Origin: an uncultured Anaerolineaceae bacterium
Lineage (GTDB): Bacteria; Chloroflexota; Limnocylindria; Limnocylindrales; CSP1-4
Direction of reading: 5' to 3'
NCBI GenBank assembly: GCA_964610835.1
Contig: CAZSWK010000002.1
Location: forward strand, 1,972-65,971
Length of the DNA: 64,000 bases
The notes beneath the pieces were generated by a model. That model ran no database searches. It was not told where the DNA came from and saw only the letters and a list, made by a program, of their open reading frames with translations. This document shows, piece after piece, positions 13,315 to 59,711 of the stretch (position 1 is its first letter; the number at the start of each line of letters is the position of its first letter). The position numbers were made by a program, and so were the translations under genes.

Positions 13315-13384
13315 GTTGCCCGAAGGCTAGCGCCATCGTTCGGACACGGGGCGCCGACCGGCCGGACGTACAATCACGGTCGGT

Positions 13385-14821
13385 ATGGCCGTCGCTATCA
13401 AGCCGCATCCCATCTACGTTGCCGGCCAGTGGGTCGAGTCCCCCGAGGTGCTGAACATTGGCAACCCGGCCGGCGGCGAACCCGCAGGGGCTACCTACAA
13501 CGCCACGGCCGAGCAGTACGAGGAGGCCGTCGCGGCCGCGGTCAGTGCCTTCGAGGAGACGCGCCGGCTGCCGGCGTACGAGCGTGCTGCGGCGTTGCGC
13601 CATATCAGCGCCGGCATCGCGCAACGGCGTGAAGAGCTGGGCCGGCTGATAACGCTCGAGTCCGGCAAGCCCATCCGCGAGGCACTGGTGGAGGTCGATC
13701 GCGCCGTGCTGACATTCCGCTTGGGCGCGGAAGAGGCCGAGCGCATCCACGGTGAGCTAATCCCGCTCGACCTGATGGCCTCGTCCCGGGGACGGGTCGC
13801 AGTCACCCGGCGCTTTCCGCTCGGCCCGGTAGCGGCCATCAGCCCGTTCAACTTCCCGCTAAACCTGGCCGCGCACAAGGTCGCACCGGCGATCGCGGCA
13901 GGCGACCCGGTCGTCCTCAAGCCGCCCTCCAAGGATCCCCTCACGATGCTCACGGTGGCTGAGATCATCGATGGCGCCGGCCTGCCCAAGGGAGCCGTCA
14001 GCATCCTGCCCATGAGCCGTGCGCTCGGTGATCGCATGGTCGCCGACGAGCGCTTCAAGCTGCTTACCTTCACTGGCTCGCCGGCGGTTGGCTGGCGGAT
14101 GAAGGAGCGTGCCGGCAAGAAACGCGTGGTCCTGGAGCTCGGTGGCAATGCTGGCGTGATCGTCGACCAGTCGGCGGACCTTGAATGGGCGGTGAAGCGG
14201 ACACTGGCCGGCGGCTTCGCCTACGCCGGCCAAGTATGCGTGAGCGTGCAGCGCGTATTCGTCCAGCGCGGCATCTACGAGGTGTTCCTCGACCGCTTCA
14301 TCGCGGGCGCCCGTGACCTGCGGGTGGGCGATCCGCTCGATCCGGCCACCCAACTCGGACCAATGGTCGATGAGCAGTCCGCCATGCGCACCGAGAGCTG
14401 GGTCAGGGAGGCCGAGCAGCTGGGGGGCAAGGTTCTGTTGGGCGGCCGCGCTCAGGGCAGTTTGTTTCCGCCCACGGTCCTGGTCGACACGCCGATGACG
14501 GCACAAGTGTGCTCCAACGAAGCCTTTGCGCCGCTCGTAGTCGTCTTCCCGTTCGACGATTTTAGTGACGCGCTGGCGATGGTCAACGACAGCTTCTACG
14601 GCCTACAGGCAGGCGTCTTCACCAACGACCTCATCCACAGCTGGCAGGCGTTCAACGAGCTCCAGGTCGGTGGAGTGATCATCAACGACGTGCCCATCTA
14701 CCGCATCGATCACATGCCCTTCGGCGGAGCCAAGGACTCGGGCCTCGGCCGTGAAGGGCTGCGCTGGTCGGTCGAGGACATGACCGAGCTGCGCCTGATG
14801 GTCGTCGCCCAGCCGGCCTGA
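13385..14821 (+). CDS. NAD(P)-dependent aldehyde dehydrogenase
   Basis: 478 aa with FTGS..G (glycine motif), catalytic Cys region (GQVCVSVQR) and ELGGNA (Glu). Confidence 0.85.
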   Translation: MAVAIKPHPIYVAGQWVESPEVLNIGNPAGGEPAGATYNATAEQYEEAVAAAVSAFEETRRLPAYERAAALRHISAGIAQRREELGRLITLESGKPIREALVEVDRAVLTFRLGAEEAERIHGELIPLDLMASSRGRVAVTRRFPLGPVAAISPFNFPLNLAAHKVAPAIAAGDPVVLKPPSKDPLTMLTVAEIIDGAGLPKGAVSILPMSRALGDRMVADERFKLLTFTGSPAVGWRMKERAGKKRVVLELGGNAGVIVDQSADLEWAVKRTLAGGFAYAGQVCVSVQRVFVQRGIYEVFLDRFIAGARDLRVGDPLDPATQLGPMVDEQSAMRTESWVREAEQLGGKVLLGGRAQGSLFPPTVLVDTPMTAQVCSNEAFAPLVVVFPFDDFSDALAMVNDSFYGLQAGVFTNDLIHSWQAFNELQVGGVIINDVPIYRIDHMPFGGAKDSGLGREGLRWSVEDMTELRLMVVAQPA

Positions 14822-14859
14822 CTCCGCCTGCGCTCTCCACGCGGCTAGACTCAGGCGCG

Positions 14860-15786
14860 ATGCCGCGACCCTTCAAGATCGGAGTCCAGCTCCCGGAAGT
14901 CGAACGCGCCGTGCGCTGGCCCGAACAGCTCGCCATCGGCCAGATGGCCGAGCAGGTGGGCTTCGACTCGATCTGGCTGGGCGATCACCTGCTCTACCGT
15001 CGGGCGGACGGCGTCGTTGGCCCGTGGGAGGCGTGGACCTCACTGGCGGCGCTGGCGCAGGCGACCAGCCGCGTCGAGATCGGGCCGCTGGTGGCTTGTA
15101 CAGCGTTCCATGACCCGCCGATGCTGGCCAAGATGGCCGCGACCGTCGACGAGATCAGCGGCGGCCGCCTGATCCTGGGCCTGGGCGCGGGCTGGAACGA
15201 GCCGGAGTTCACTGCCTACGGCATTCCCTTCAGCGATCGCGCGAGCCGGTTCGAAGAGGCCTTCACGATCATTCGCCGCCTGCTGCGCGACGGCCACGCC
15301 GACTTCGATGGGCGTTTCTACCAGGTGCGCGACTGCGAGCTGGTGCCGCGCGGCCCGCGCCCCGACGGGCCGCCACTGATGCTCGGCTCAATCGGCCCGC
15401 GGCTGCTGAAGTTCACGGCGCCGGTCATCGACTCCTGGAACGCCTGGTACGCGTGGTTCGGCAACTCCCCGGCCGGCCTCGCGCCACTTCTGGAAAAGGT
15501 TGACACGGCATGCCGTGCGGCCGGCCGCGACCCGGCGGAGGTCGAACGGACGGTCACCTTGCTGGTGCACATGCCCGGCGGGCGGGGCCGCCTGTCGGGT
15601 GAGGGGCAACAGGCGGACGATCGTGCCCTGCGTGGAGCACCGGACGAGATCGCGGCCGCCATCGCTGCATACGCGCCGCTGGGCATCGGCCACGTCCAGC
15701 TCGTGCTCGACCCCATCACCGTCGAATCGGTCGCCGCCTGTGCGCCGATCCTCGAGGCCCTGGACAGGACGGCTGACCGCAGCTGA
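14860..15786 (+). CDS. LLM-class F420-dependent oxidoreductase (luciferase-like monooxygenase family)
   Basis: 308 aa with FDSIWLGDHL and GLGAGW motifs of LLM flavin/F420 oxidoreductases. Confidence 0.8.
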   Translation: MPRPFKIGVQLPEVERAVRWPEQLAIGQMAEQVGFDSIWLGDHLLYRRADGVVGPWEAWTSLAALAQATSRVEIGPLVACTAFHDPPMLAKMAATVDEISGGRLILGLGAGWNEPEFTAYGIPFSDRASRFEEAFTIIRRLLRDGHADFDGRFYQVRDCELVPRGPRPDGPPLMLGSIGPRLLKFTAPVIDSWNAWYAWFGNSPAGLAPLLEKVDTACRAAGRDPAEVERTVTLLVHMPGGRGRLSGEGQQADDRALRGAPDEIAAAIAAYAPLGIGHVQLVLDPITVESVAACAPILEALDRTADRS

Positions 15787-16619
15787 TGGCGCCCGAGGCC
15801 GTCGCGGCGGCACTGCCCTACGTCAATTGGATGGTCCTCGTCGCGGTCGCGGTGGGCAGCTTCGCGCTCATCGCCCTGATCCACGAAAGGACCGATGCCA
15901 CCCGTGGCTACATCGCGTTCAGCGCCTTCATCGCCGGGGTGATCGGTCTGCTCGCCTTCGCCTCCGGCGGCGCCCTGCCCGTACCGTCGGGCCTGGCCAT
16001 CCATGCGGCGTCGGCAGATGTTGACCTTGGTCGCCGGCTGTCGCTGGCCGCCTTCAGCGCGCTGGCGATCCTGTACGCCATCTTCCTGCGCTTTCGTCGG
16101 ACACATCTGCTCGCGGCGGTGCTTGCCCTGGTCAGCGGCGCCGCAGCCCTGCTCTTTGCCGCCGTTGGCTGGGCGCCCACGCCGACCGACGCGGTGCCAC
16201 TGGGCGTTCAGCTGTTCATACTCTCGGCCGTCAGCGGCGGCGCGCTGGCCGCGCTGACACTGGGCCACTGGTACCTCGTGACGCCCAAGCTGTCGACCAC
16301 GCCGCTGGTGCTCGAAACACGTCTGCTGCTTGCCGCCGCGATTCTTCAGACGCTGTTGTTCGTGACCTGGACGACGCTCGGCGGTGGCGTTGACCAGGCT
16401 GCCTTCGCGGCACTGACCGGTTCGTCGGCGCCGCTCGTCTGGATGCGCCTGATCGTGACCCTGATCTTCCCGCTGATACTCATCTACATGGCCCTGCGCA
16501 CGGCCCAGACGCGGTCGATGGAATCGGCCACGGGATTGCTGTACATCAACCTGGCCGCGGTCGCGGCGGGCACCATCGGCGCGGCCGCGCTGTACGTCAC
16601 CGGCGGGCTGCTGGTATGA
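15786..16619 (+). CDS. integral membrane protein, hypothetical
   Basis: 277 aa with about 7 hydrophobic helices. It overlaps the neighbouring genes at both ends (coupled operon). Confidence 0.5.
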   Translation: MAPEAVAAALPYVNWMVLVAVAVGSFALIALIHERTDATRGYIAFSAFIAGVIGLLAFASGGALPVPSGLAIHAASADVDLGRRLSLAAFSALAILYAIFLRFRRTHLLAAVLALVSGAAALLFAAVGWAPTPTDAVPLGVQLFILSAVSGGALAALTLGHWYLVTPKLSTTPLVLETRLLLAAAILQTLLFVTWTTLGGGVDQAAFAALTGSSAPLVWMRLIVTLIFPLILIYMALRTAQTRSMESATGLLYINLAAVAAGTIGAAALYVTGGLLV

Positions 16620-17347
16620 ACGTCACCGTGCGCCTGTTCGCGATCCTGCGCCAGCAGGCCGGCTGGCAGGTCCGCCAGCTCGATCTGCCGGGCGCAGCCA
16701 CGGTCGAGGACGCCTGGCAGGCGCTCGTCGCGCAGCAGCCCGCCCTGGCGCCGACGCGCTCGATCGTTCGCTTCGCCGTCAACCGGCACTACGCGGCCGC
16801 AGACCAGGCGCTGGCCGACGGCGACGAGCTGGCGCTCATTCCACCGGTTTCGGGTGGTGCCGACCACCAGCCGCGGCTGTGGCTCACAGCCGATCCGATC
16901 TCCGACGACCTGCTCGGCGAGCTGCGGCGGACGTTGCCCACGGCACGCGACGGGGCATTCGTGATCTTCGTCGGCCAGACGCGCGAGACTCCCGGCACGC
17001 CGGCGCCCGGCGAGGAAGCCGAGGCCGCGCGGCATGCGGGCAAGCCCGTTGAGGAACTCGACTACGAGGCATACGAGGAGATGGCGCTCGACGTCCTGCG
17101 CCGGATCGCGGGCGAGATCGAGCAGCACTTCGGTGTCGAGCGGCTGGCCATCGTGCATCGCACCGGCAGCGTGCCGCTCGGCGAACCGAGCGTGGTGGTG
17201 GCGGCCGCCGCGCCCCACCGATCGGCCGCGTTCGAGGCCGCGCGCTACGCGATCGACGAGCTCAAGACGCGGGCACCCATCTGGAAGTCGGAGCAATACC
17301 GCGACGGGTCGGTCTGGGTCGGGTCGCCGGCGCGGGGAGGTGAGTGA
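16616..17347 (+). CDS. fused molybdopterin synthase MoaD-MoaE (MoaX-like)
   Basis: N-terminus MNVTVRLFAILRQQAG...ELALIPPVSGG is a MoaD/ThiS beta-grasp ending in GG. The C-terminal 150 aa are MoaE (FVGQTRE..., LAIVHRTGSVPLGEPSVVVAAAAPHR). Confidence 0.8.
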   Translation: MNVTVRLFAILRQQAGWQVRQLDLPGAATVEDAWQALVAQQPALAPTRSIVRFAVNRHYAAADQALADGDELALIPPVSGGADHQPRLWLTADPISDDLLGELRRTLPTARDGAFVIFVGQTRETPGTPAPGEEAEAARHAGKPVEELDYEAYEEMALDVLRRIAGEIEQHFGVERLAIVHRTGSVPLGEPSVVVAAAAPHRSAAFEAARYAIDELKTRAPIWKSEQYRDGSVWVGSPARGGE

Positions 17348-18180
17348 TGGTTCGGGTCTACCTGTCGGTCGACATGGAGGGCATGGCCGGCGTGAGCCAC
17401 GCGGCACCCACGCGGCGCGGCGACGACCTCTACGCCCAGACAGTCGAGCTGATGACCGGCGAGACGAACGCCGCGATCGAGGGCGCCTTCGCCGGTGGCG
17501 CGACGGAGGTCACGGTCAACGACAGCCACGGCCAGATGTTCAACCTGCCGCCCGAGAAGCTCGACCCGCGGGCGCGCCTGGTCGAGGGCAAGAAGCCGCT
17601 GTCGATGGTCGAGGCTGCCCGCGAGTCGAAGTTCGACGTGGCGCTGTTCGTCGGCTATCACGCGCGGGCCGGCCACCCCACCGGCGTCATCGCGCATACC
17701 TACAACCCGCGCATCACGCTGGTCACGTTGAACGGCCGGCCCGCGACCGAGGCGGCCGTGAATGCGCTCTACCTGGGCTCGTTCGGCATACCCGTCGGCC
17801 TGGTCACCGGGGATGACGCCCTGGCCGCCGAGGTGGCCGAGTGGCTGCCCGCCGCCGAGCGCGTGGTGGTCAAGCGCGCGCTGGCCTTCCAGTCGGCCGA
17901 TTCGATCCTCCCGGCACGGGCGCGCGACCTGATCCGCGATGCGGCGCAGCGTGTCCTGGTCCGCGTCGCCGCCGGCGAGAAGCTGCCGGTGTTCACGATG
18001 CCCATGCCCGTCGAGCTGCGGCTGGAGGTCGCCACACCTGGCCAGGCGGCGATGACGGCGGTCATCCCCGGTTTCGAGCGCGACGGCGACCGCGAGATTG
18101 TCTTCTCCGCGCGTGATCCGGTCGAGATGTTCCGTGCCCTGATCAGCGCCGCGCGGATGGTGATACCCGCCGACGACTGA
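17344..18180 (+). CDS. DppA-type D-aminopeptidase (peptidase M55)
   Basis: MVRVYLSVDMEGMAGV...NDSHG...GYHARAG matches the M55 family. Confidence 0.75.
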   Translation: MMVRVYLSVDMEGMAGVSHAAPTRRGDDLYAQTVELMTGETNAAIEGAFAGGATEVTVNDSHGQMFNLPPEKLDPRARLVEGKKPLSMVEAARESKFDVALFVGYHARAGHPTGVIAHTYNPRITLVTLNGRPATEAAVNALYLGSFGIPVGLVTGDDALAAEVAEWLPAAERVVVKRALAFQSADSILPARARDLIRDAAQRVLVRVAAGEKLPVFTMPMPVELRLEVATPGQAAMTAVIPGFERDGDREIVFSARDPVEMFRALISAARMVIPADD

Positions 18181-43946: not shown

Positions 43947-44057
43947 CGAAACGTTGCCTGCGCACCCGGCACGTTTGGCTATCTTTATTCGTCAAGAGAC
44001 CGTTGCCAGGTGCCCGCCGTGGCCAGGGGAGGCGCATTGCGCGAAAATCGGGGTCGC

Positions 44058-45614
44058 ATGATGGCCAGCTATGCCCGGCGTCCGCGTGTTCGTTCGGGAG
44101 CGATAGCTGCTGCACTCAGCTTCGTTTTTCCGGGCCTGGGTCAGGCATATCTTCGGCACCGCCGCGCCGCCCTGATCTTCGGCGGCCCGGTGCTGCTGCT
44201 CTTCCTTGGCCTGGCTCTCTGGATCGCAGGGGCCGGCCTGACGCGCGTCGGCCTGAAGTTCCTCGATCCAACCATCGCTCTGTTCGGCGCGCTCGCCGTG
44301 CTGGTCGTGGGTCTGTGGTGGATCGGCGCCATCGTCAACGCCTGGCGCGCCGGCCGCCGCGGGCCGGGTACGGCGTTCGCGGTGCCATTGCTGCTCATCT
44401 GCGTGGTCGGCGCCGCGACGTTGTACGGGACCGACTGGATGTATCGATTGTCGGTTGCCGACCGCGGTTTCAATGACAGCCCGGACGTGACTCTCGGCGA
44501 TAACTCGTCGCCCAGCCCGTTCAGCAGCGTGATCGCGCAGGTGCCGACGCCCAGCGGCAGCCACCTGGCGACAGCGACTCCAACGGCAAGCCCATCGGGC
44601 TACAACGACTACGGCGTAGATCCGACCGAGCCTCCGGCAACGATCCAGCCCGGACCTTCGCCCACCTTCGACATCACCAGGATCGATGCCCAGAACGACG
44701 GCTGGCTGAACGTCCTACTGATGGGCATCGACACGCGCTGCGCGGGCGGCCCGGTGACCGGCGCCAACAGCGACAGCATGATCGTGGTGAGCGCGAACGC
44801 GGCCACGGGTGACGTCTACATGTTCAGCTTCCCGCGCGACATCGCGAAATTCCCCCTCTACGTCGGTGGGACCATGCCCGGCTACTGGAAGCTCAACTCG
44901 TTTGCCGGCTGGACAAAGAGTGCGCCAAGTTACTTTCCCGAGCCCGGTCAGCCGTCGTTGGCCTACGAGATCGGCTACCTCCTGGGCATCCCCATCGACT
45001 ACTACGCGTCGATCAACATCTGTGGCTTTCCGCAGCTCATCGACGCGTTGGGCGGCGTCGATGTGTGCAACGCACACACCATCGACGATCCCGGCTACCC
45101 GTGGGGCAACGGTCAGTATGGCTTCCACCTCGATCCCGGGCCGTACCACTTCGACGGCGCGACCGCGCTCGCCTACGCTCGCTCGCGCCACGGCAGCAGC
45201 GACTTCGCCCGCGCCAAACGGCAGCAGCAGCTACTGACGGCCATTCGCAAGGCCGTCATGGAGCCGCAGAACCTGGCACGTTTGCCCGACATCGTGGCGG
45301 CGCTCAGCGGCGTGGTGCACACCAACTTCCCGCCCGACCAGATCGATCAGCTGTTGTCGCTCGCCAATCAGCTGGAGTCCGCTCCCACGGCTGAGTACGT
45401 GTTCAGCTCCCCCGAGTGGGCTCAGCACCTGCCGCGCGGGCTGACCAACGGTCGTTCGGTGGAGTTCCTGCGCCTCGACAAGGTTGCCGCTCTTTCAGAG
45501 CAGGTCTTCGGCGACAAGAGCCTGTACACGACCGGTGGCGCAGTACCTTCGACTAACCCATTCGATCTCCCGACGCCTTCACCAACACCGTCAGATAACG
45601 CTAACGTTTGCTAG
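44058..45614 (+). CDS. LytR-CpsA-Psr (LCP) family cell-envelope phosphotransferase
   Basis: N-terminal TM helices, a Pro/Thr-rich linker, then the LCP core (VLLMGIDTR...SDSMIVVS...FPRD...R). The start is moved to MMASYARRP. Confidence 0.8.
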   Translation: MMASYARRPRVRSGAIAAALSFVFPGLGQAYLRHRRAALIFGGPVLLLFLGLALWIAGAGLTRVGLKFLDPTIALFGALAVLVVGLWWIGAIVNAWRAGRRGPGTAFAVPLLLICVVGAATLYGTDWMYRLSVADRGFNDSPDVTLGDNSSPSPFSSVIAQVPTPSGSHLATATPTASPSGYNDYGVDPTEPPATIQPGPSPTFDITRIDAQNDGWLNVLLMGIDTRCAGGPVTGANSDSMIVVSANAATGDVYMFSFPRDIAKFPLYVGGTMPGYWKLNSFAGWTKSAPSYFPEPGQPSLAYEIGYLLGIPIDYYASINICGFPQLIDALGGVDVCNAHTIDDPGYPWGNGQYGFHLDPGPYHFDGATALAYARSRHGSSDFARAKRQQQLLTAIRKAVMEPQNLARLPDIVAALSGVVHTNFPPDQIDQLLSLANQLESAPTAEYVFSSPEWAQHLPRGLTNGRSVEFLRLDKVAALSEQVFGDKSLYTTGGAVPSTNPFDLPTPSPTPSDNANVC

Positions 45615-46440: not shown

Positions 46441-47208
46441 TTTCTCGTCGATTACGACGGCACGGTTTCACTGCTCGACATCGGCGATGAGCTCCTGGCA
46501 CGGCACTTTGCCGACCGTGTCGAGGCAGCCCGGCTGGACGCGCTCTATGACGCCGGCGAGATCGGCTCGCGCGAGCTCATGCGCTGGGACATGGACGTGC
46601 TGCCGCGGGATCCCGCGCTGCTGCGTCGCGAAGCCGCGGCCATGCCCCAGGACGCAGCATTCCCGGCATTTGTGCGCGCAGCCCATGGGCACGGCGCACG
46701 GGTCGAGGTGGTCAGCGACGGGCTCGGCTTCTACGTGCGCTCAAACCTCGCCGCGCTCGGAGTACGCGACGTGTTCGTGGCCACCAACGACAACACGGTC
46801 AGCGATGGCGGTGCGGGGATGAGCTTCCCCTTCAGTCATCCAAGCTGCTTCGTGTGTGGTACCTGCAAGCGAGAGCGCGTCAGGCTGCACCAGGCGGCGG
46901 GGCGAGTGGTCGTGTTCATCGGTGACGGCACCAGCGACCGTTTCGGCGCGGCTCACGCCGACATCGTCTTCGCCAAGGATGGGCTGGCCCGCATGTGTCG
47001 GGCAGAGGGCTGGCCGTTCGAGCCGTGGTCTGACTTCGGCGAGCTGACGCGCTGGATCGAGGATGCCTTCGCCAACGGTCGGCTGCCGCGTTCGGAGGCG
47101 GACCTTGACCCCTGGCGCGCCCAACATGGCCGGGCGCCGCAGGCTTTCATATGCGGCCCGGAGGTCTGGGGGCCGGGTCGTTCGACCCCGGGACCGGGAC
47201 CGGGCTAG
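46441..47208 (+). CDS. HAD-superfamily phosphatase (MtnX/PSP-like) with no canonical start codon upstream of motif I
   Basis: HAD motif I (FLVDYDGT) is encoded at 46441-46464, but the first in-frame ATG/GTG/TTG is at 46579. The frame is open back to the stop at 46354-46356 with only CTG available. This may be a frameshifted or pseudogenised gene, or one using a non-canonical start. Confidence 0.55.
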   Translation, partial: FLVDYDGTVSLLDIGDELLARHFADRVEAARLDALYDAGEIGSRELMRWDMDVLPRDPALLRREAAAMPQDAAFPAFVRAAHGHGARVEVVSDGLGFYVRSNLAALGVRDVFVATNDNTVSDGGAGMSFPFSHPSCFVCGTCKRERVRLHQAAGRVVVFIGDGTSDRFGAAHADIVFAKDGLARMCRAEGWPFEPWSDFGELTRWIEDAFANGRLPRSEADLDPWRAQHGRAPQAFICGPEVWGPGRSTPGPGPG

Positions 47209-47252
47209 CGCCGCCGGATGCCGATCCTGATGGTCGCTATGATCGGCGCGTC

Positions 47253-47834
47253 GTGCGTTTCTCCTTCCTGGTCAGTTCACTGATGGCCGTGGCCCTGGCG
47301 GGCACTGTGCTCGCCGGCGCCATCTTGATCGGCCTGGTGCCTACGGGCCCGGGCACGGGACCCACTGCCACGCCCGCGCCTGCCTCCGCGTCCGCGTCGC
47401 AACAGGTCTCGCAGCCGACGCCGACTGAGGCGATCACTGCCGCTCCATCGCCCACTCCTTCGGCCACCCCGGTGCTGCCCTCGGCGGGCGGCACCTATGT
47501 CGTCCAGGAGGGGGACACGTTGACCGGCATCGCGGATCAGGTCGGTGTGCCATGGCAGCTCATCGCCCAGGCGAATGACATCCAGGGGCCCGACTACATA
47601 ATCCAGGTCGGCGACATACTCACCATACCGGCGGCGCCCAGTAGCTCACCCAATCCCAACGCCTATGTCGTGAAGCCGGGCGACACCATCACTGCGATCG
47701 CCCAGCAGTTCGGTGTCGATCCGAGCGATCTGGCCGATTACAACAACGTCGGAAACTGGAATGACATCAAGGTCGGCCAGACGCTCTACATCCCGGGACC
47801 CGGCTGGACACCACTGCCAACCGCGAGCCCCTAG
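47253..47834 (+). CDS. membrane-anchored LysM-domain protein (two LysM repeats)
   Basis: TM helix, then a Pro/Thr/Ala linker, then two LysM units (YVVQEGDTLTGIADQVGV...; YVVKPGDTITAIAQQFGV...). Start choice is uncertain (GTG 47253, ATG 47283 or ATG 47151). Confidence 0.7.
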   Translation: MRFSFLVSSLMAVALAGTVLAGAILIGLVPTGPGTGPTATPAPASASASQQVSQPTPTEAITAAPSPTPSATPVLPSAGGTYVVQEGDTLTGIADQVGVPWQLIAQANDIQGPDYIIQVGDILTIPAAPSSSPNPNAYVVKPGDTITAIAQQFGVDPSDLADYNNVGNWNDIKVGQTLYIPGPGWTPLPTASP

Positions 47835-48033
47835 CGGTCTGCGCGGCACGAGTGGTGCACGTGCACAACACAGAACTGGGAAACTAGTACTTAATGGTCA
47901 AGTAGTACTTTCGGTCACCCGCGCGAGGTGCTAGCGTTAGCGGACTCGGCGGCGCCTGCCGTCGATTAACCCGAAGATGAAGCTAATCGGTCAGAGCCGA
48001 CTGAGATCTCGGCAAGAGGAAGTGGGGCAAACT

Positions 48034-48537
48034 GTGAAGGTCGCAAAGGTATTTCTCGCTTCTGTCGTTGCCGGTCTGCTGGTGCTGGCCGGGAGCGCGC
48101 TGGCGGTCTCAGCCTACGAAGGACAGGTGCCGGCGCAGATCAAGCTGGTCGCGACGTGCACCGGCAACACGCTGGTGGCGACGGTCCTCGACTCGCAGGG
48201 CAACAAGATCAGCGGTGTCGACGTGACGTTCTCGTTCGTGCAGAAGGGTGACAGCGCAGACAGCCTTGCGCCTTCGTCTGACACGACCAACACGGACGGC
48301 AAGGCCAGCGTCGGGCTTTCCCTGGCGGACGTGGCGGGCACGCGTGTGCTCAAGGCTCAGACAACCGACGCAGGCGCCCAGAACACGCTCACCCTGAACT
48401 GCACCCACGGCCTGCCGCCCACCACCGCCGATGCGTCCACGGGCGGCTACGGCCTGCCGCTGGCGCTACTGCTCGGCATGGCGGTACTGGTTCTCGCCGG
48501 TACGTTCACCTGGCGGTTCGCCCGCGTTCGCGCCTAG
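48034..48537 (+). CDS. exported surface protein with C-terminal TGG / hydrophobic / Arg-rich sorting-signal-like tail
   Basis: GTG start has a GAGGAAG RBS. Signal peptide (VKVAKVFLASVVAGLLVLAGSALAVSA), Ig-like beta region and C-terminal ...LPPTTADASTGGYGLPLALLLGMAVLVLAGTFTWRFARVRA. The sortase gene follows immediately. Confidence 0.6.
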   Translation: MKVAKVFLASVVAGLLVLAGSALAVSAYEGQVPAQIKLVATCTGNTLVATVLDSQGNKISGVDVTFSFVQKGDSADSLAPSSDTTNTDGKASVGLSLADVAGTRVLKAQTTDAGAQNTLTLNCTHGLPPTTADASTGGYGLPLALLLGMAVLVLAGTFTWRFARVRA

Positions 48538-48554
48538 ACTTTCGTTCAGCGCAT

Positions 48555-48577
48555 CATCCCGGCGGAACGCCGGGATG
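48555..48577. terminator. GC hairpin (catcccggcg-gaa-cgccgggatg) after the surface-protein gene
   Basis: 10-bp perfect inverted repeat read from sequence. Confidence 0.5.
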
Positions 48578-48614
48578 ACCCGGCGTTCATAGCGCACTCG
48601 GAGTAGTTTTCATC

Positions 48615-49292
48615 GTGGCCAGAGTTGGCTTGCCGCGAAACTTCGTCGGCTTGGCTGTGCTGGCGCTTGCGATCTTGCTGGCGGTGGTCGGCGTCCCGCT
48701 GGTGGCCTCCAGCCTGTCACCATCGGCGCCGGCATCAACGGCCCCCGCGTCGGGCCTGCCCTTTGTCCCCGACAGCCCGGCGGCCCAGGGACCGACTGGC
48801 TCACCTGGCCAGTCCGCTACGAGCACCCCGGCACCGGGCACGAGCGTCCAGGGCCTGCCATCGACCGATGGTTCGACGCCAGCGCCCGTCAACGGCGAGT
48901 CGGGCATCGTCGCGACACGCGTGCAGGTGCCTCGCCTGGGCATTGACCTGCCGGTCGTGGAGGGGGACGGCGTCGATGCGCCTTTGCACATGGCGGCCCA
49001 CTATCCCGGCACCGCATGGCCGGGCGGCGGATCAAACATCTACCTCTACGCGCATGCCCGTCAGCAGATGTTCCAGAACCTGTGGAATGCGCAGTTAGGT
49101 GACCTCGTCTACCTCGATCTCGTGGATGGGAGCCAGCGCGTCTACCAGGTCACGAAGATCGAGCCGGACATCGCCTGGAACGACCTGAGCGTGCTCGACC
49201 CCACGCCCACTGAGCAGCTGACCCTGCAAACGTGCACGGGAACACAGGACACTGATCCGCGCTTCCTGGTCATAGCCACGCCCGTGTCGTGA
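48615..49292 (+). CDS. sortase (class E/F-like transpeptidase)
   Basis: N-terminal membrane anchor, His region (LYAHA) and catalytic TLxTC (LTLQTCTG). Confidence 0.8.
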   Translation: MARVGLPRNFVGLAVLALAILLAVVGVPLVASSLSPSAPASTAPASGLPFVPDSPAAQGPTGSPGQSATSTPAPGTSVQGLPSTDGSTPAPVNGESGIVATRVQVPRLGIDLPVVEGDGVDAPLHMAAHYPGTAWPGGGSNIYLYAHARQQMFQNLWNAQLGDLVYLDLVDGSQRVYQVTKIEPDIAWNDLSVLDPTPTEQLTLQTCTGTQDTDPRFLVIATPVS

Positions 49293-51268
49293 GCGACGTC
49301 GAGCTCGGCGCCCAACCGGTGCCCGAGCGGCGCCGACGGCGGGTCCGGTGGCGGCGCCTGGGGGTGGCACTCATGGTGGTGCTGGTCCCCTTCCTTCTGC
49401 TGGGACTGTATGCCGCTGTGCGCTACCTGCCGGCGCTCGACAATGCCCAAGCCGCGCGCGCGAGTCTGCGCAGCGCGATGAGTCAGGCCAGCAACATCGC
49501 CACCATCGACGCGGCCGGCCTCGACGCGGCCGCCGCCGACGTCGCCGATGCCAAGCAGCGCTTCAGCCAACTCGACGACTTACTGGCGCACGATCCCCTC
49601 ATCTCCCTGCTGCGCAATGCGCCCGTGGTTGGCAAGCAGATCCGTGGTGCCGACGACCTGGTCGCGGCGGGTGACGACGTGGTTGCCGCGGCAGAGGACA
49701 TGTTGAGCGTGGGGCACCAGTTCCTCAACGCTCGCGACGGCAGCGGCGACCCCATGCCGCGCCTGGTGGCGCTGATGCAGCAGGCGGCGCCGGACGTCAC
49801 CCGGGCCGACCAGCTACTGACCGACGCGCAGCAACACGTCGATGCGATACCCGACGGGTTGGCGAGGCAGATTATCGATGGGCGAGACGAGCTGCGCGAT
49901 CGGTTGGACCGCTACCTGCCGGTCCTCGACGCGTACGCGGGTGCGCAGGGCTACATACCGTCGCTTCTCGGTGCCAACGGGCAGCGCCGCTACCTGGTCC
50001 TGCCGGAGGACCCGGCCGAGCTGCGGCCGACGGGTGGATTCATGGGCTCCTACGGGATCGTCGTGTTCGACGGAGGGGCCATAGTCAGCTCCGACTTCCA
50101 TGACATCTACACCCTGGACCTGCAGCCGGGCATTCCCTATGTTGCGCCGCCGCGCGATCTCAAGGACCACCTTCTGGGCACCTACTCGTGGCAACTCGCC
50201 GATGCAAACTGGTCGCCCGACTACCCAACGTCGGCGCAGGAGGCGCTGGCCCTCTACACGCACGAGTCCGGTGACTCGAACATCGATGGCGTCATCGTCC
50301 TGACCACGACAGCGATCGACAAGCTGCTGACCCTTACCGGACCGGTGGCCGTTCCCGAGTACGGGGTCACGGTGCACGCCGGCCAGACGCTCTTCATCAC
50401 CCTGGCCAACACGCGCCAATCGCAGACGCCGGGGGTCAATCGCAAGGCTTTCCTCGACTATCTCGCCGACCACCTGCTGCAGGCTGTACGTGCGCTGCCG
50501 GCCAGCAAATGGTTGGACGCGCTCAATGTGCTGGACGAGATCCGGACACAGCGACAGGCGATGATCTGGCTGGCCGACCCGCAACTGCAGGCGCACGTGG
50601 TCGACGCTGGGTGGAGCGGAGGCCTGCGCCAGGACACCGGTGACTTCCTGATGTCTGTCGACTCGAACGTCGCGCCGGTGGGCAAACTGAACGCCATCGT
50701 CCAGCGCCAGCTCGCCTTCACCGCTCACATCGACTCCGTCGGCAACGCCCACGACTCGCTGCAGCTGAACTGGACGAACCCCATCCTGAGTGGCGTCGGG
50801 CCCAACTACGACACCATGCGCGCCATCCAGAAGAACGTCGACATCCTGGGCAATTTCAACCGCATCGTTGTGCCCGAGAGAAGCCGACTGGTGTCGGTCA
50901 CGGGAGGCAGCGCGCTGACGCCCGTCGACTCGCTCGAATCGCAGGGCACCGAAGCCGGCCGTGACTGGTTCGGGACCTACCTGATGGTGCCGCCCGGTGA
51001 AGCCTCGCTCGATTGGCAGTGGATCTCACCATACGTGGCGATCCCGCCACCCACCGGCGGCCTTGTTACGTACAGCCTCGTGGTGCAAAAGCAGCCCGGG
51101 ACCAACGCCGACCCGCTCTCGGTGAGCGTTCAATTGCCCGCGGGGGCGCAGTTCGTGTCAGCTTCCGAAGGCGCCCAGGTGAACGGCAGCGTGATCCGCT
51201 GGCAGACCAACCTGCAGACCGACGTCGTGCTGCAGGTGCAGTACCGGCTGGGACCGTCACCCGGCTGA
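49289..51268 (+). CDS. DUF4012 domain membrane-anchored protein
   Basis: 659 aa with an N-terminal TM and a long extracytoplasmic region matching the DUF4012 pattern seen in actinobacterial envelope polysaccharide loci. It overlaps the sortase stop by 4 bp. Confidence 0.7.
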   Translation: MSDVELGAQPVPERRRRRVRWRRLGVALMVVLVPFLLLGLYAAVRYLPALDNAQAARASLRSAMSQASNIATIDAAGLDAAAADVADAKQRFSQLDDLLAHDPLISLLRNAPVVGKQIRGADDLVAAGDDVVAAAEDMLSVGHQFLNARDGSGDPMPRLVALMQQAAPDVTRADQLLTDAQQHVDAIPDGLARQIIDGRDELRDRLDRYLPVLDAYAGAQGYIPSLLGANGQRRYLVLPEDPAELRPTGGFMGSYGIVVFDGGAIVSSDFHDIYTLDLQPGIPYVAPPRDLKDHLLGTYSWQLADANWSPDYPTSAQEALALYTHESGDSNIDGVIVLTTTAIDKLLTLTGPVAVPEYGVTVHAGQTLFITLANTRQSQTPGVNRKAFLDYLADHLLQAVRALPASKWLDALNVLDEIRTQRQAMIWLADPQLQAHVVDAGWSGGLRQDTGDFLMSVDSNVAPVGKLNAIVQRQLAFTAHIDSVGNAHDSLQLNWTNPILSGVGPNYDTMRAIQKNVDILGNFNRIVVPERSRLVSVTGGSALTPVDSLESQGTEAGRDWFGTYLMVPPGEASLDWQWISPYVAIPPPTGGLVTYSLVVQKQPGTNADPLSVSVQLPAGAQFVSASEGAQVNGSVIRWQTNLQTDVVLQVQYRLGPSPG

Positions 51269-51455
51269 CATTGGGCGCGCCGGGCGCGGCGTGGCGCGAG
51301 CGGGCACCTGACTTTGGTCCGGGTGACCCAAGTACGGTGGGCAGTCCAGTTAGCCCGTGATAGGTTCGCCCGGCGTTGATGGGGGGAGGTGGCGAGGCTG
51401 ATGTCCGCGCCGCCCACACGTGATCGAGCTGGCAGGTGCGGAAAGCGAGGACCAT

Positions 51456-54645
<3,190 letters not shown>

Positions 54646-54717
54646 ACAGCCTGCCCTTTACGATCTCGCAACGCCTCCTCGCGTACACTCGGTGCACGAA
54701 AGACGAGGAGTGAAGAC

Positions 54718-55408
54718 GATGAAGATCTTCCTGGACACGGCCGAGATCGAGGAAATCCGAACTGCGGCTCGATGGGGCGTGCTCGACGGCGTGACGACCA
54801 ACCCGACCCTGTTCGCCAGGGTTGGCGGGTCCTACGACGAGGTGCTCAAGCAGATCTGCGAGATAACCTCCGGGCCGGTGAGTGCCGAGGTCGTGGCCGA
54901 GGACGTCGAGGGCATGCTGCGTGAGGGCCGCCATTTCGCCAAGCTGGCGCCCAACATCGTGGTCAAGATACCGATGAGCGAGGTTGGGCTGGAAGCCATC
55001 TCACGCCTGGCCGATGAGGGCATTAAGACCAACTGCACGCTCATCTTCACCGCCAACCAGGGCCTGCTGGCGGCCAAGGCAGGTGCCTGGCTGCTGTCGC
55101 CCTTTGTCGGGCGGCTGGATGACATCAATCAGGACGGCATGGACGTGATCCGCGAGCTGGTCACCATCGTCGACAACTTCGACCTCGACGCCCAGGTGCT
55201 GACTGCGTCGGTCCGCCATCCGCGCCACGTGACCGAGGCGGCGATGCTCGGTTCGCACATCGCCACGCTGCCGTTCAAGGTCCTCGAGCAGATGGTTCAC
55301 CACCCGCTCACGGATGCGGGCATCAAGCGGTTCCGCGAGGACTGGGACAAGGCGCGCAAAGAGGCTGCCGACAAGCAGCCCGCCGCCGCGGGCGCGCGCC
55401 AGAACTAG
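54718..55408 (+). CDS. tal: transaldolase, short (Fsa/TalC-like) form
   Basis: MKIFLDTAEIEEI...TTNPTLF...VKIP...FVGR is present (Schiff-base Lys region). It is the tail of track ORF 54380..55408. Confidence 0.85.
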
Positions 55409-55550
55409 CCAGCCCGCGGCGCTGGCCGCCGGCCTCGCACGCTCACTCCGTCGCCCCGCGCGAAATCGCTGAAAAATCGATGCGCCACGGGGCGTTCCGC
55501 GTGGCATGCTTACGCCGCGTCACGGGGAGCAACTTCGAGGAGGGAGCACC

Positions 55551-57692
55551 ATGTCACCGTCGCTCCGTGTTCGGGCTACCCAATTCATCGCGGGAATGTT
55601 CGTGGTCGTGCTTGCCCTGGCACCGGCCGCGCGGCCTGTGTCGGCCGCGGACACCGTTACCCTGCGCATCGGCATCGACCAGAAAGCAAGCGGCCACGGC
55701 CTGAACCCGTTCCGTGCCCTGCTTGGCCAGGACTGGCTGATGTTCGCCGACGTCTATGACCTGCTCGTGGACTTTGGCCCCAACCTCGAGCCTGAGCCAG
55801 GCCTCGCGGAATCCTGGGAGACATCGCCGGACGGCCTCACCTGGACCTTCCACATCCGCCAGGGCGCGACGTGGCAGGACGGCCAGCCGGTCACGGCCAA
55901 CGACGTGGCGTTCACGCTGAACTTCATCCGTAGCAGCGAGGATCCGGCGTACACGGGCCCCTGGGCGCCCAATGGCAACGACACCAACGGCGACGGTGAT
56001 CCCGATCACCCGCTGTCACTGTTCGACAACTATCTCGACCTCGCCGACGGGTACGCCAATACGCGCATCTCATCGGTCGCGGCGACCGACGCATCGACAG
56101 TCGTGATCAAGACCACGGCACCACTGATCGTGCTCGGCCAGATGTACATCCCGATATTGCCGGAGCACATCTGGGGGAGCATGACCTTTGCCCAGGCCTA
56201 CAAGACCACCAACGACAACCCGATCGGTTCGGGCCCCTTCCAGGTCGTCGATTTCAACCGCGACCAGGCCATCCGGCTGGTCGCCAACAAGAACTACTGG
56301 GGCGGTGCGCCCAAGATCGACCAACTGATCTACCAGTACTTCGACACCGACGAGGCGGCCGTCAACGCGCTGACAACAGGCTCGATCGACATGATCAGCG
56401 ACGTCCCGACGACGCTGGTGTCAACACTCCAGGGCAGGAGCGACATCACCATCAACCAGGCCCCGATCACCGACTTCGTGGAGCTGGGCTTCAACAGCTG
56501 GAACCCCACGCCACAGCAGTTCGACGAACTAGGTACCACGGATTATGCGAAGGGTCCCACCACCGGCTCGAACGGCAACCCCTGGCTAACGCTGCCCGAT
56601 GTGCGCGCAGCACTCTCCCAGTTGGTCGACAAGCAGCAGCTGGTCGCCAGCGCCGTGAACGGCTACGCCACGCCCGGCGAAGGCCTGATCGGCCCCGCCG
56701 ACCCGACGTACTACTTCCAGGCGCCGGCGGACGACCCGGCCACCTATCCGGGCGATCTCAATACCGCGATCTCACGCTTCCAGGCCGTTATGGCCACGCA
56801 CGGATTCGCCGACACGGACGGGAACGGCATCCTGAACGTGCCCGATACTTCTGACGCGCAGGCCTTCGATCCCAACGGCGCCGGGCAGGATTGGAGTCTG
56901 CGTCTCTTCGTCCGTAACGATCAGCAGTCGGACATCATCGCGGGCGGCCTGATCCAGTCCTGGATGGAGCAGGCCGGTGTGAACGTCGACCTGCAGCAGA
57001 TCACCGAGGACGTCCTGACCGACGACACCTACCCCGCGTCGACGAACGCCGATATCGACATGTACCTGTGGGGCTGGGGGCCCGACCCCGACCCCGACTT
57101 CATCCTGAGCGTCTTCACGTGCGACCAGATCGATAACTGGCAGGATGCCAACTATTGCGATCCGGCGTACGACGACATGTATCGCCAGTCACAGACGGCC
57201 ACCGACATCGCGACGCGGCAGCAGATCGTGCACGACATGCAGCAGAAGCTGTACACGGAAGCTCCATACGCGGTGCTCTGGTACTCGCAGGCGATCGAGG
57301 CTTATCGAAGCGATCGCTTCACCGGCTTCGTCCAGCTGCCGCGCAGCGGGGGCGCCATCTGGGGTGCCTGGGCGTACGGTCCCTACGGCAGCCGGTTGTC
57401 GGTCGCCCTGGTAGGCGCCGAACCGACGGCTGCTCCGACCTCCTCGCCGGTAGCCACTGCCTCAGCGGAGGCTTCCGCCGGCCCGAGTGCCTCGGCGGTG
57501 GCGCCGACCCCGGCGTCATCCGAGGAAGCGATCGTGACCACACCGGCGCCGACGGCCGCTCCCGGCGACAACACGACGCCAACCGGTGGTGACAACACGC
57601 CGCTGTTCGTGGCGCTTATCGTCATCATCGTCGTGCTTCTTGGAGGTGGCATCCTGTGGATCCGACGCCGGAGCGAACGCGAGGCCGAGTGA
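55551..57692 (+). CDS. ABC transporter substrate-binding protein (family 5, peptide/nickel type) with C-terminal TM anchor
   Basis: Sec-type signal peptide without a lipobox, then an SBP_bac_5 core, then a roughly 60-aa Ala/Pro/Thr/Ser-rich linker and ...TPTGGDNTPLFVALIVIIVVLLGGGILWIRRRSEREAE. The start is moved to MSPSL, which has a GAGGAGGGA RBS. Confidence 0.8.
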   Translation: MSPSLRVRATQFIAGMFVVVLALAPAARPVSAADTVTLRIGIDQKASGHGLNPFRALLGQDWLMFADVYDLLVDFGPNLEPEPGLAESWETSPDGLTWTFHIRQGATWQDGQPVTANDVAFTLNFIRSSEDPAYTGPWAPNGNDTNGDGDPDHPLSLFDNYLDLADGYANTRISSVAATDASTVVIKTTAPLIVLGQMYIPILPEHIWGSMTFAQAYKTTNDNPIGSGPFQVVDFNRDQAIRLVANKNYWGGAPKIDQLIYQYFDTDEAAVNALTTGSIDMISDVPTTLVSTLQGRSDITINQAPITDFVELGFNSWNPTPQQFDELGTTDYAKGPTTGSNGNPWLTLPDVRAALSQLVDKQQLVASAVNGYATPGEGLIGPADPTYYFQAPADDPATYPGDLNTAISRFQAVMATHGFADTDGNGILNVPDTSDAQAFDPNGAGQDWSLRLFVRNDQQSDIIAGGLIQSWMEQAGVNVDLQQITEDVLTDDTYPASTNADIDMYLWGWGPDPDPDFILSVFTCDQIDNWQDANYCDPAYDDMYRQSQTATDIATRQQIVHDMQQKLYTEAPYAVLWYSQAIEAYRSDRFTGFVQLPRSGGAIWGAWAYGPYGSRLSVALVGAEPTAAPTSSPVATASAEASAGPSASAVAPTPASSEEAIVTTPAPTAAPGDNTTPTGGDNTPLFVALIVIIVVLLGGGILWIRRRSEREAE

Positions 57693-57750: not shown

Positions 57751-58800
57751 ATGAGCCGGCGCGTCCTGGTGCGCCGGATCGTCAACGCGCTGGTGACCAT
57801 CGCCTTCATTGCGGTGGCCAACTTCATCCTGTTCCGGCTGATCCCGGGCGATCCGACGCGCGCGCTCCTGCCGCGCAACGTGAGCTCGGAGGAGCGCGCC
57901 GCCCTGCGCGACCGCCTGGGCCTGGACCAGCCGTTGCTGCCCGGTGTCGTGCGCCAGGCGAACGGCCGGATCGAGGTGGATCTCTCGACGCTGCCCGACA
58001 GCATCACCAACAACCAGTTGGTGACGTACTTTGGCAACCTGCTCCAGTGGCCGCCTGACCTGGGCGATTCATTCGCCGAGCCGGGCACGGTGGTGGACGC
58101 GATTGCACAGCGTTTCTGGCCGACAGTGCTGTTGGTCGGCGTGGCAGAAGCGGTGGCGCTCCTGCTGGGGGTCGCCATCGGCATTGTCGCCGGATGGAAA
58201 CGGGGCGGCATCTTCGACACGGTGTCGGTGAGCGGGTCGCTGGTGCTCTATGCCGTGCCGCTGTTCTGGCTGGGCATGCTGCTGCTCTTTTTCCTGGCCA
58301 CGTCGAACGGAGTGCCCATCTTCCCCGAGCAGCAGATGGTCACCCCCGGGCGCGTATATGCCAACTCCATCGATGAGGTGCTGGACATCGGCGCGCACCT
58401 GGTCCTTCCCGCGGCCACCCTGGCACTCGGGCTGGTAGCCGACTATGCGCTGATCATGCGCTCGTCGCTGATCGAGGTGCTGACCGAGGAGTACATCACG
58501 ACCGCGCGCGCCAAGGGCCTGTCCGAGCGGGGCATCCTGCGTCGCCACGCCCTGCCCAACGCGTGGCTGCCCACGGTCTCCCTTACGGCTCTATCACTGG
58601 GTTACGTGCTGGGCGGCGCGATCGGTGTTGAGACCGTCTTTGCCTGGCCCGGCTTGGGCCGGTTGACCATCGATTCGGTCGCCGCCAAGGACTTTCCCGT
58701 GCTGCAGGGCCTGTTCCTGCTGATCGCGATCAGCGTTGTCCTCGCCAATCTGGCCGCGGAGATCATCTACGGCATGCTCGACCCGCGGGTGCGCGAATGA
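57751..58800 (+). CDS. ABC transporter permease (DppB/OppB-like)
   Basis: 6 TM helices and an EAA-like loop (ARAKGLSERGILRRHALPNA). Confidence 0.85.
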   Translation: MSRRVLVRRIVNALVTIAFIAVANFILFRLIPGDPTRALLPRNVSSEERAALRDRLGLDQPLLPGVVRQANGRIEVDLSTLPDSITNNQLVTYFGNLLQWPPDLGDSFAEPGTVVDAIAQRFWPTVLLVGVAEAVALLLGVAIGIVAGWKRGGIFDTVSVSGSLVLYAVPLFWLGMLLLFFLATSNGVPIFPEQQMVTPGRVYANSIDEVLDIGAHLVLPAATLALGLVADYALIMRSSLIEVLTEEYITTARAKGLSERGILRRHALPNAWLPTVSLTALSLGYVLGGAIGVETVFAWPGLGRLTIDSVAAKDFPVLQGLFLLIAISVVLANLAAEIIYGMLDPRVRE

Positions 58801-59711
58801 GACGCCTGCGTTCGGGCTGGCGCATCTTCCGGCGCAGCCGTCAGGGCATGGTCGGGCTGATCATTTTGACCGCCTTCCTGTTGCTCGCGGTCGTTGGTCC
58901 GCTGATCGTGGGACCACTCAACAGGGTGGCCTCTTTCCAGCAGCTGCAGGGACCATCACTGGAGCACCTCTTCGGCACGGACCGGGCCGGCCGAGACGTC
59001 CTGGTCACGTTCGTCAACAGTTCCCAGGTGAGCCTCATGGTGGGCATCCTCGCGAGCGTCCTCTCGATGATCATCGGCGCCGCCGTGGGAATCGTCTCCG
59101 GCTATACCGGCGGTCGCACCGACACCACCCTCATGCGCATCACCGACTTCTTCTACGTGCTGCCGACCCTCGTGCTGGCGGTCGTGCTGGCCGCCGTGCT
59201 GGGGCCCAGCCTGATCAACGTGATTGCCGTCATCGCCATCAGCTCGTGGGCCGGCACGGCGCGCATCATCCGGGCCCAGACACTCTCCATCCGTGAGCGT
59301 GCGTTCGTCGCCAGGGCACGGGCGTACGGAGCCGGCGATGTGCGGGTGATGATCCGCCACGTGCTGCCCAATGTCTTTTCGCTGATCCTGGCCAACACGA
59401 CGCTCACCGTCGGCTCGGCGATCTTCCTCGAGACCACGCTCTCCTTCCTGGGCGTGGGCGTTCGCGACACTTTCTCGTGGGGCCGCATGCTCGAGGAGTC
59501 GTTCGACGCGGGCGCACTGACGCTCGGCCTGTGGACGTGGTTCGTACCGCCCGGACTGGCCGTCGTCCTGGTGGTGCTTGCGTTCACGCTGATCGGACAG
59601 GCTTTCGACGAGATCCTGGACCCACGCCTGCGGTCGCGCGAGCAGGGCGGCGACGAGGGCGGCACGGAAGGCCTCGGCGGGCTGATGCCCGCCGTCGCCG
59701 AACCGAGCTGA
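58797..59711 (+). CDS. ABC transporter permease (DppC/OppC-like)
   Basis: TM pattern and EAA loop (ARARAYGAGDVRVMIRHVLPNV). 4-bp overlap with the upstream gene. Confidence 0.85.
   Translation: MRRLRSGWRIFRRSRQGMVGLIILTAFLLLAVVGPLIVGPLNRVASFQQLQGPSLEHLFGTDRAGRDVLVTFVNSSQVSLMVGILASVLSMIIGAAVGIVSGYTGGRTDTTLMRITDFFYVLPTLVLAVVLAAVLGPSLINVIAVIAISSWAGTARIIRAQTLSIRERAFVARARAYGAGDVRVMIRHVLPNVFSLILANTTLTVGSAIFLETTLSFLGVGVRDTFSWGRMLEESFDAGALTLGLWTWFVPPGLAVVLVVLAFTLIGQAFDEILDPRLRSREQGGDEGGTEGLGGLMPAVAEPS

Follow-up and report, generated by a model that had tools for sequence, protein, structure and literature searches.

Distinct C-terminal tails on a sortase-linked Ig-like protein and an ABC substrate-binding protein of an uncultured Chloroflexota bacterium

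In a 64-kb stretch of DNA from an uncultured Chloroflexota bacterium (the window; G+C approximately 68%), two exported proteins encoded about 9 kb apart have C-termini in which a hydrophobic segment is followed by a basic tail: a small Ig-like protein whose gene is followed by a sortase gene, and the substrate-binding protein (SBP) of an ABC importer. An initial annotation had described the two tails as the same and proposed that both carry a new xxTGG motif, cleaved between T and G by the sortase. Our analysis indicates that these are probably two unrelated C-terminal features, a dedicated sortase system and a membrane anchor of the SBP, and that the TGG tripeptide in both is coincidental. 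The small protein very probably bears a non-canonical sorting signal, of the form LPxT[S/D/T][T/A], on which the sortase acts. Current class models and sorting-signal models miss both this signal and the sortase subfamily. Substrate and sortase form a conserved cassette with a DUF4012 protein, set in a cell-wall glycopolymer locus.

A scan of the window for proteins with a signal peptide, a C-terminal transmembrane (TM) segment and a basic tail found only the small protein and the SBP, the tail scan additionally returning two integral membrane proteins. Sortase relatives were encoded at 58 genomic loci (59 with the window) from metagenome-assembled genomes labelled Chloroflexia, Chloroflexota or Candidatus Limnocylindria; loci and database proteins are numbered with L and P, respectively. 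Motif statistics refer to 52 unique LPxT tails, and 48 substrate tails were used for the NCBIfam scan and for the comparison of acidic ends. The small-protein alignment comprised 41 sequences, the census of the sortase nucleophile 53 loci and 120 database homologues, and the census of SBP tails the 120 best SBP homologues (P0121-P0240).

At 52 of the 59 loci, the open reading frame (ORF) immediately upstream of the sortase gene had a C-terminus in which a spacer separates LPxT from a TM segment and basic tail. At four of the seven loci without an LPxT-tailed ORF (L008, L038, L044 and L049), a contig end lies within 2 kb of the sortase, and in the remaining three (L051, L052 and L058) the cassette genes are split into several frames. 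Alignment of the tails on the motif gave G(38)-L(52)-P(52)-x-T(52)-[S41/D7/T4]-[T47/A5]-[L/A/D]-P(36), followed by a spacer of 9-19 residues (median 14) before the TM segment and, typically, an RRxxxxRR end. The invariant element beside the sortase is LPxT, not xxTGG. In the window, the small protein ends LPPTTADASTGGYG-LPLALLLGMAVLVLAGTFTW-RFARVRA and carries the motif as LPPTTA, which was overlooked in the initial annotation because its fifth residue is not Gly. That annotation was right about the hydrophobic segment and basic tail at both C-termini, and about the absence of LPXTG and LAXTG from either protein. The LPXTG-type layout that it saw in both holds for the small protein, with its N-terminal signal peptide, LPPTTA, TM segment and RFARVRA, and fails for the SBP, which has no LPxT and an acidic end.

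TGG was present between the motif and the TM segment in 2 of the 52 tails and absent from the closest relatives, L001 (LPPTTADSPAATDSS) and L002 (LPNTSADSPVSTDYS), whose sortases are 73-79% identical to that of the window; it therefore sits in the variable spacer. Among SBP homologues, TGG was found in 15 of 86 tails and L[PA]xT in 2, and the 88%-identical SBP orthologue (P0122) reads TPTSGDNTP, with TSG instead of TGG. By composition, the tripeptide is expected in approximately 2% (SBP linker) and 11% (small-protein linker) of 12-residue stretches. It does stand 2-4 residues before the hydrophobic segment in both window tails, where it is the only specific element that they share, but it is conserved in the orthologues of neither, and its presence in both appears to be coincidence. 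The xxTGG idea should accordingly be dropped from the annotation, and the SBP should not be labelled an LPXTG protein.

The sorting signal of the small protein falls outside the described classes, as had been supposed. TIGR01167 scored 12.6 bits on it (cut-off 15.9) and aligned to TGG, not to LPPT. An NCBIfam scan of the 48 family tails returned weak matches to JDVT-CTERM (8), NPXTG (6), GVDTG (5), LPXTG (4), MYXO-CTERM (2) and PEP-CTERM (1), so that no sorting-domain model fitted the substrate tails, the best reaching 8/48. The GlyGly-CTERM, PEP-CTERM and PGF-CTERM models, classes that the initial annotation had named, matched neither the small protein nor the SBP at E ≤ 1.

Database searches confined the tail to one protein family. 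A HMMER tail profile, built from the window tail and four database fragments and including a few family-specific residues upstream of the motif, retrieved 31 proteins at E ≤ 1e-3 from 1.84 billion representative proteins. All were 46-254 aa long, no SBP was among them, and the 12 matches that were read all belonged to the small Ig-like family with LPxT[S/D/T][T/A]. A search of a 5.8-billion word-indexed database with the tail alignment was uninformative, returning only four fragments, all from this family. Metagenomes were also scanned for exact matches to degenerate DNA encoding GLPNT[ST]TLP, which gave 40 in-frame occurrences. Of these, 27 belonged to C-terminal tails that continue into a TM segment and a basic end, and 13 were chance matches in unrelated ORF frames. 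Eighteen of the 27 had a sortase directly downstream; the other tails lay on short contigs or had no sortase within 1.5 kb downstream. The tail class is thus found in a single protein family encoded beside the enzyme, the pattern that Haft called a dedicated system, in which one sorting enzyme serves one adjacent target (PMC3237569), and the cassette looks like a dedicated one-substrate sortase system. The suggestion of a distinct signal serviced by this sortase therefore stood for the small protein; for the SBP, whose tail class is common to 86 of 120 homologues, it did not.

A P1' residue other than Gly has precedent, as does cutting at T|S or T|A: LPXTS and LPXTN proteins are on record, the former in S. 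agalactiae (PMC8225981), and among the structural matches listed for the window sortase was a S. pyogenes SrtA crystallised with an LPATS peptide (PDB 7s4o). A reading of LPNTST as an N-glycosylation sequon was rejected, x being N in only 21 of the 52 tails.

The ORF of the small protein spans 47977-48537, and the real start is the GTG at 48034, which aligned with Met in 30 of 41 homologues. A signal peptide is predicted at 48034-48114 (…AVSA|YEGQV). Pfam Big_1 scored 34.2 bits, marginally below its cut-off of 34.9, and the precomputed annotation PF02369 is present on homologues. At 26 of the 58 genome loci, tblastn recognised a homologue upstream of the sortase gene. The predicted mature N-terminus, Y-x-G-Q-V (48115-48129; Y47-V51 of ORF 47977), is itself conserved (Y 41/41, G 34/41, V 40/41), and Cys61, 14 residues past this Tyr, is kept in 40 of 41; a second Cys just ahead of LPxT occurs in a subset of homologues only. 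No conserved Lys was found across the 41-sequence alignment. Some loci encode two or three tailed substrate paralogues, in tandem or nearby, within 6 kb: those of L012 (4969-5625 and 7033-7662) are identical over their last 55 residues, and L028 has three (1925-3064, 3065-3808 and 6869-7861).

The sortase gene starts 77 nt downstream of the small-protein gene. Its assignment, as first annotated, was borne out by PF04203 (82 bits, cut-off 26.6), by TIGR01076 (56.1 bits, cut-off 39.35) and by TLQTC at 49218-49235; the catalytic residues are H147 (49053-49055), C207 (49233-49235) and R216 (49260-49262), with H147 and R216 invariant in the alignment. Profiling against sortase classes A-F brought no class-specific NCBIfam model to its cut-off: class E gave 44.7 bits (cut-off 160), SrtD 43.3 (140), class D 40.8 (165), class C 39.2 (160), class GN 24.1 (158) and class F 20.2 (166). 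The AlphaFold2 (AF2) model of the catalytic domain, with pLDDT mostly above 80 and a weaker stretch at about residues 131-140, has the eight-stranded beta-barrel fold of sortases. Foldseek returned 117 PDB matches at E ≤ 1e-3, and among the matches listed all 50 were sortases; the top matches were class C enzymes (3tbe and 4g1j; E approximately 1e-10, 28% identity), closely followed by classes D, A and E. Class C sortases were also best in a phmmer search of solved structures (E approximately 1e-6). The protein ends 9 residues past R216, and a disordered P/S/T/A linker precedes the barrel; neither sequence nor AF2 model showed the class C lid or a C-terminal TM anchor. A pilin hypothesis was rejected for lack of this lid and of a conserved Lys in the substrate.

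The third cassette gene encodes a DUF4012 membrane protein. By tblastn, DUF4012 lay downstream of the sortase in all loci reaching past the sortase gene (56 of 58). The two genes share 4 nt where the sortase ends and DUF4012 begins, in the window (49289/49292) as well as in L059, L060 and L062; DUF4012 occupies, for example, 10702-12681 of L059 and 10651-12624 of L062. Lys386 and Lys466 are invariant, among many conserved residues. A single-sequence AF2 model was poor (pLDDT 46): it predicted an N-terminal TM helix, a long helical stalk and, with moderate confidence, a C-terminal beta-sandwich with a weak DUF11 match. A sequence search of the PDB found no relative. DUF4012 has been noted in an exopolysaccharide cluster of Bifidobacterium longum and is enriched in Gram-positives, Chloroflexi and Candidate Phyla Radiation bacteria (PMC5412050, PMC6744442). 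Its tight coupling to the sortase makes an acceptor or scaffold role conceivable, if not likely, and gives a first functional handle on this widespread domain.

The SBP ends TTPTGGDNTP-LFVALIVIIVVLLGGGILWI-RRRSEREAE, and its tail proved to be of another class. A tail of this kind was carried by 86 of the 120 homologues, down to 35% identity, while 34, including some partial sequences, lacked it. Of the 86, 80 have a GG run no more than 14 residues away from the TM segment, and 85 have at least two acidic residues after RRR (as in RRRSAEDRA, RRRNEDDDDE or RRRxxEDDDE), against 0 of 48 substrate tails. No other protein with an SBP-type tail was found across 1.2 Mb of related DNA, and no curated model fits this suffix. 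Tailed and tail-less homologues alike have SPase I-type signal peptides. Lipoprotein anchoring of the tail-less paralogues, which would make the tail redundant, was considered and set aside as unsupported, a lipobox-like tetrapeptide occurring in 3 of 34 tail-less and 0 of 86 tailed proteins.

On the SBP tail, TIGR01167 reached 17.5 bits and so passed its cut-off (15.9). The match starts only at profile position 5, so that it leaves out LPXT and covers just the TM and basic parts, and we regard it as a false positive; automatic annotation may nevertheless mislabel the SBP as an LPXTG protein. With its SBP_bac_5 domain, SPase I signal peptide, low-complexity linker, single C-terminal TM segment and neighbouring ABC permeases, the protein resembles the OppA-type proteins of Sulfolobus and Aeropyrum, in which an SPase I signal and a Ser/Thr stretch accompany a C-terminal TM anchor (PMC3387779). 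A family-specific membrane anchor is the most economical reading of the tail, and the SBP appears to be neither part of the sortase system nor a second substrate of it. Downstream in its operon lie permeases at 57751-58800 and 58797-59711 and two oligo_HPY ATPase ORFs, up to 61863.

In the mechanism that we propose, the small Ig-like protein would be exported via Sec with a cleavable signal peptide, after which its C-terminal TM segment and basic tail would keep it in the membrane. By analogy with characterised sortases, the enzyme would then cleave after the Thr of LPPT|TA (LPxT|[S/D/T][T/A] in the family, T|S in most relatives), Cys207 attacking the Thr-Thr bond to form an acyl-enzyme, from which the small protein would be transferred to an envelope amine, most likely of a peptidoglycan precursor or cross-bridge. 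The translationally coupled DUF4012 protein would be an obligatory partner in the cassette. The SBP tail, made up of an Ala/Pro/Thr/Ser linker, a Gly-rich stretch, the TM segment, RRR and the acidic end, would keep the binding protein beside its permease.

Several observations weigh against this account. The spacer between LPxT and the TM segment (median 14) is longer than in canonical signals, and TIGR01167 fails to recognise the small-protein tail. The SBP tail, in turn, passes that model, though without the LPXT positions, and it behaves like a suffix (absent from 34 of 120 homologues, some partial) with a conserved Gly-rich stretch, as is typical of processed sorting signals. In most sortase relatives (39 of 53 loci), the nucleophile position is occupied by Ser, the window enzyme being a Cys form. 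Finally, the source genome is covered by 64 kb only, and further substrates elsewhere are possible.

Three other explanations were weighed. That both proteins carry a new signal cut at T|G by the neighbouring sortase would fit the position of TGG in the two tails and the TIGR01167 alignments, in which the T-G positions of the model fall on the TGG of the small protein and the SBP tail passes the cut-off. It is nonetheless very improbable: the closest orthologues of either protein (L001 and L002; P0122) lack TGG, which is scarce in both tail sets, LPxT is the invariant element beside the sortase, the acidic end separates SBP from substrate tails, and no SBP was retrieved by the tail profile. 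We also think it unlikely that the SBP tail is a GlyGly-CTERM-like signal, cut by an intramembrane protease or a transpeptidase of some other system. The tripartite layout with Gly-rich stretch just before the TM segment (80/86) speaks for this, as do the suffix behaviour among homologues that all have SPase I-type signal peptides, the near absence of lipobox-like tetrapeptides, and the suffix-type properties that Haft describes as typical of sorting signals (PMC3237569). On the other side, the GlyGly-, PEP- and PGF-CTERM models found nothing, no rhomboid or exosortase family was matched among the multi-TM ORFs of the window that were scanned, and the tail is restricted to one protein family in the related DNA. 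Moreover, a binding protein has to remain at the membrane beside its permease, archaeal OppA-type proteins offer a documented case of a plain C-terminal TM anchor (PMC3387779), and the conserved acidic cytoplasmic end suggests that the tail is retained.

A fate for the small protein other than attachment to peptidoglycan is likewise improbable: it could be ligated to DUF4012 itself or to a glycopolymer-linked acceptor or be polymerised, or the sortase could be a non-catalytic LPxT-binding partner, above all in its Ser forms. Consistent with such a fate, DUF4012 is always co-encoded, often translationally coupled, and has two invariant Lys; the nearest solved structures are pilus-polymerising class C sortases; the domain of the Ser forms, which occur at 39 of 53 loci, contains no other Cys; and the cassette is embedded among polysaccharide-synthesis genes. 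However, Lys-isopeptide pilus polymerisation is unlikely because the substrate alignment shows no conserved Lys, the sortase has neither class C lid nor C-terminal TM segment, and the invariance of His and Arg in Cys and Ser forms, with the substrate motif kept beside both, argues for catalysis. A dedicated sortase system beside an unrelated, membrane-anchored SBP is the explanation that we prefer.

In the sortase relatives, the nucleophile position read TLQTS, not TLQTC, at 39 of 53 loci and in 30 of 120 database homologues, with all of TCC, TCG, TCA and TCT used as Ser codons. The Ser forms had no Cys anywhere in the catalytic domain (30/30) and retained the invariant His and Arg, and the neighbouring substrates kept the LPxT[S/D]T motif. 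On a rough neighbour-joining tree, the Cys/Ser state changed at least six times. Ser-type examples include loci L005-L047 and others at about 8300-8600 (L019:8418, L029:8358) and proteins P0101, P0110, P0113 and P0060. Two loci encode a second sortase paralogue, of Cys type (…LTLQTCLGPN…), approximately 3 kb upstream of the cassette's own Ser-type enzyme (L005:4807-5178 and L013:1193-1462). A literature search found no natural sortase with the catalytic Cys replaced by Ser, and to our knowledge no natural serine sortase has been described earlier. Judged by these retained residues and motifs, the Ser forms may be natural serine sortases; the prevalence of Ser also means that the family is possibly not one of classical Cys transpeptidases. 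As the window enzyme is a Cys form, its own interpretation is unchanged. If the Ser forms are active, the interchange is relevant to sortase enzymology and to protein-ligation engineering.

Among known systems, class A sortases and LPXTG sorting share with the window the N-terminal membrane anchor, the sortase fold, the His/Cys/Arg triad and the TLxTC of the enzyme, as well as a substrate with a signal peptide, LPxT motif, TM segment and basic tail. They differ in that P1' and P2' in the window family are S/D/T and T/A, not G, that the motif stands 9-19 residues from the TM segment, that the tail scores below the TIGR01167 cut-off, and that the enzyme appears with one neighbouring substrate family, not with many substrates. 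Class C sortases (S. agalactiae SrtC1; 3tbe, 4g1j) are the best sequence and structure match among solved structures; the window sortase is unlike them in lacking a lid and a C-terminal TM segment and in scoring 39.2 bits against 160 on NF033745, and its substrate has no pilin-type Lys. Class E enzymes of Actinobacteria (NF033747) gave the best class-specific score and come from similarly high-GC environmental monoderm-type hosts, but 44.7 bits is far under 160, and the motif of the window family is LPxT, not LAXTG.

Dedicated systems with an adjacent single target have been described for the class GN sortases of Proteobacteria (Comfort & Clubb 2004, as cited in PMC8225981). The window resembles class GN (TIGR03784) in having one sortase with one adjacent target in a cassette with additional conserved partner genes. 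It differs in the low score of its sortase (24.1 bits against 158), in its Chloroflexota hosts, in a target that is small and Ig-like, not vWA/vault-like, and in DUF4012 as the partner. The reported class GN target motif, LP[QK]T[AS]T, resembles LPxT[S/D/T][T/A].

For the SBP, the closest parallel is with the crenarchaeal OppA-type proteins of S. solfataricus and A. pernix, which also combine the Opp/Dpp family, an SPase I signal, a Ser/Thr/Pro-rich linker and a C-terminal TM tether (PMC3387779). The window protein differs in its bacterial (Chloroflexota) origin, in the Gly-rich stretch before the TM segment and in the RRR-plus-acidic end. Its tail is laid out like GlyGly-CTERM proteins handled by rhombosortase (TIGR03501), with a Gly-rich motif, TM segment and basic cluster, but it has no match to the model, an extra acidic end, a single protein family and non-proteobacterial hosts, and no rhomboid was found in the scanned ORFs of the window.

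A literature search found nothing joining Limnocylindria with sortase, nor Chloroflexi with the sortase superfamily. The LPxT-sortase pairing is conserved across approximately 50 related uncultured Chloroflexota genomes, and the signal and sortase subfamily belong to abundant soil and freshwater members of this group, whose envelope is poorly known. It is possible, and we suggest it tentatively, that the Limnocylindria sortase-DUF4012 cassette represents a new sortase class, with its own LPxT|[S/D/T][T/A] signal with a long spacer, one dedicated Ig-like substrate, an obligatory DUF4012 protein linking anchoring to glycopolymer assembly, and a nucleophile that has repeatedly switched between Cys and Ser.

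Table 1. Coordinates of the cassette, the SBP and neighbouring genes in the window.
Feature	Coordinates	Strand	Basis
Small secreted Ig-like (Big_1-like) protein, putative dedicated sortase substrate	48034..48537	+	ORF, Pfam, homologue alignment
LPPTTA, window form of L-P-x-T-[S/D/T]-[T/A]; proposed recognition/cleavage site	48412..48429	+	Tail alignment
TGG tripeptide in variable spacer	48439..48447	+	Present in 2/52 tails
Hydrophobic segment (48454-48513) and basic tail RFARVRA (48514-48534)	48454..48534	+	TM/tail scan
Membrane-anchored sortase: N-terminal TM, Pro/Ser/Thr/Ala-rich linker, minimal catalytic domain (~100-225)	48615..49292	+	PF04203, TIGR01076, AF2
DUF4012 membrane protein, third cassette gene	49289..51268	+	PF13196, 102 bits
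LysM (2 domains) peptidoglycan-binding protein, directly upstream of small protein; context gene	47151..47834	+	Pfam LysM, 105 bits
LytR-CpsA-Psr (LCP) glycopolymer transferase homologue	44010..45614	+	PF03816, 99.8 bits; gene also in L062
UDP-glucose/GDP-mannose dehydrogenase	51420..52904	+	Pfam neighbourhood annotation
SBP_bac_5 (Opp/Dpp-type) substrate-binding protein, first gene of ABC importer operon	55551..57692	+	PF00496, 248.7 bits
SBP tail: TTPTGGDNTP, TM (57603-57662), RRRSEREAE (57663-57689)	57573..57689	+	Homologue tail census

Pfam annotation of the neighbourhood gave the order LysM, Big_1, sortase and DUF4012, with the LCP transferase upstream (Table 1). LysM was found upstream in about 12 loci by tblastn and, in addition, in L061 and L062. 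Past DUF4012, the relatives encode Wzz-like proteins, glycosyltransferases and a Polysacc_synt flippase, all ahead of UDP-glucose dehydrogenase, and also epimerases. A scan of 47700-51500 for promoters and terminators found nothing. Between DUF4012 and UDP-glucose dehydrogenase, L062 carries a GT2/polysaccharide-deacetylase fusion, a small ORF and a Polysacc_synt flippase (12756-16907); the window is without these genes and has a 151-nt gap at 51268-51420.

Elsewhere in the window, the plus strand encodes a 277-aa ORF with approximately eight predicted TM segments and no Pfam family at E ≤ 0.01 (15786-16619). At its start this ORF overlaps the 3' end of a luciferase-like monooxygenase gene, and next come genes for a fused ThiS-MoaE (16616-17347) and for a Peptidase_M55 D-aminopeptidase (17344-18180).

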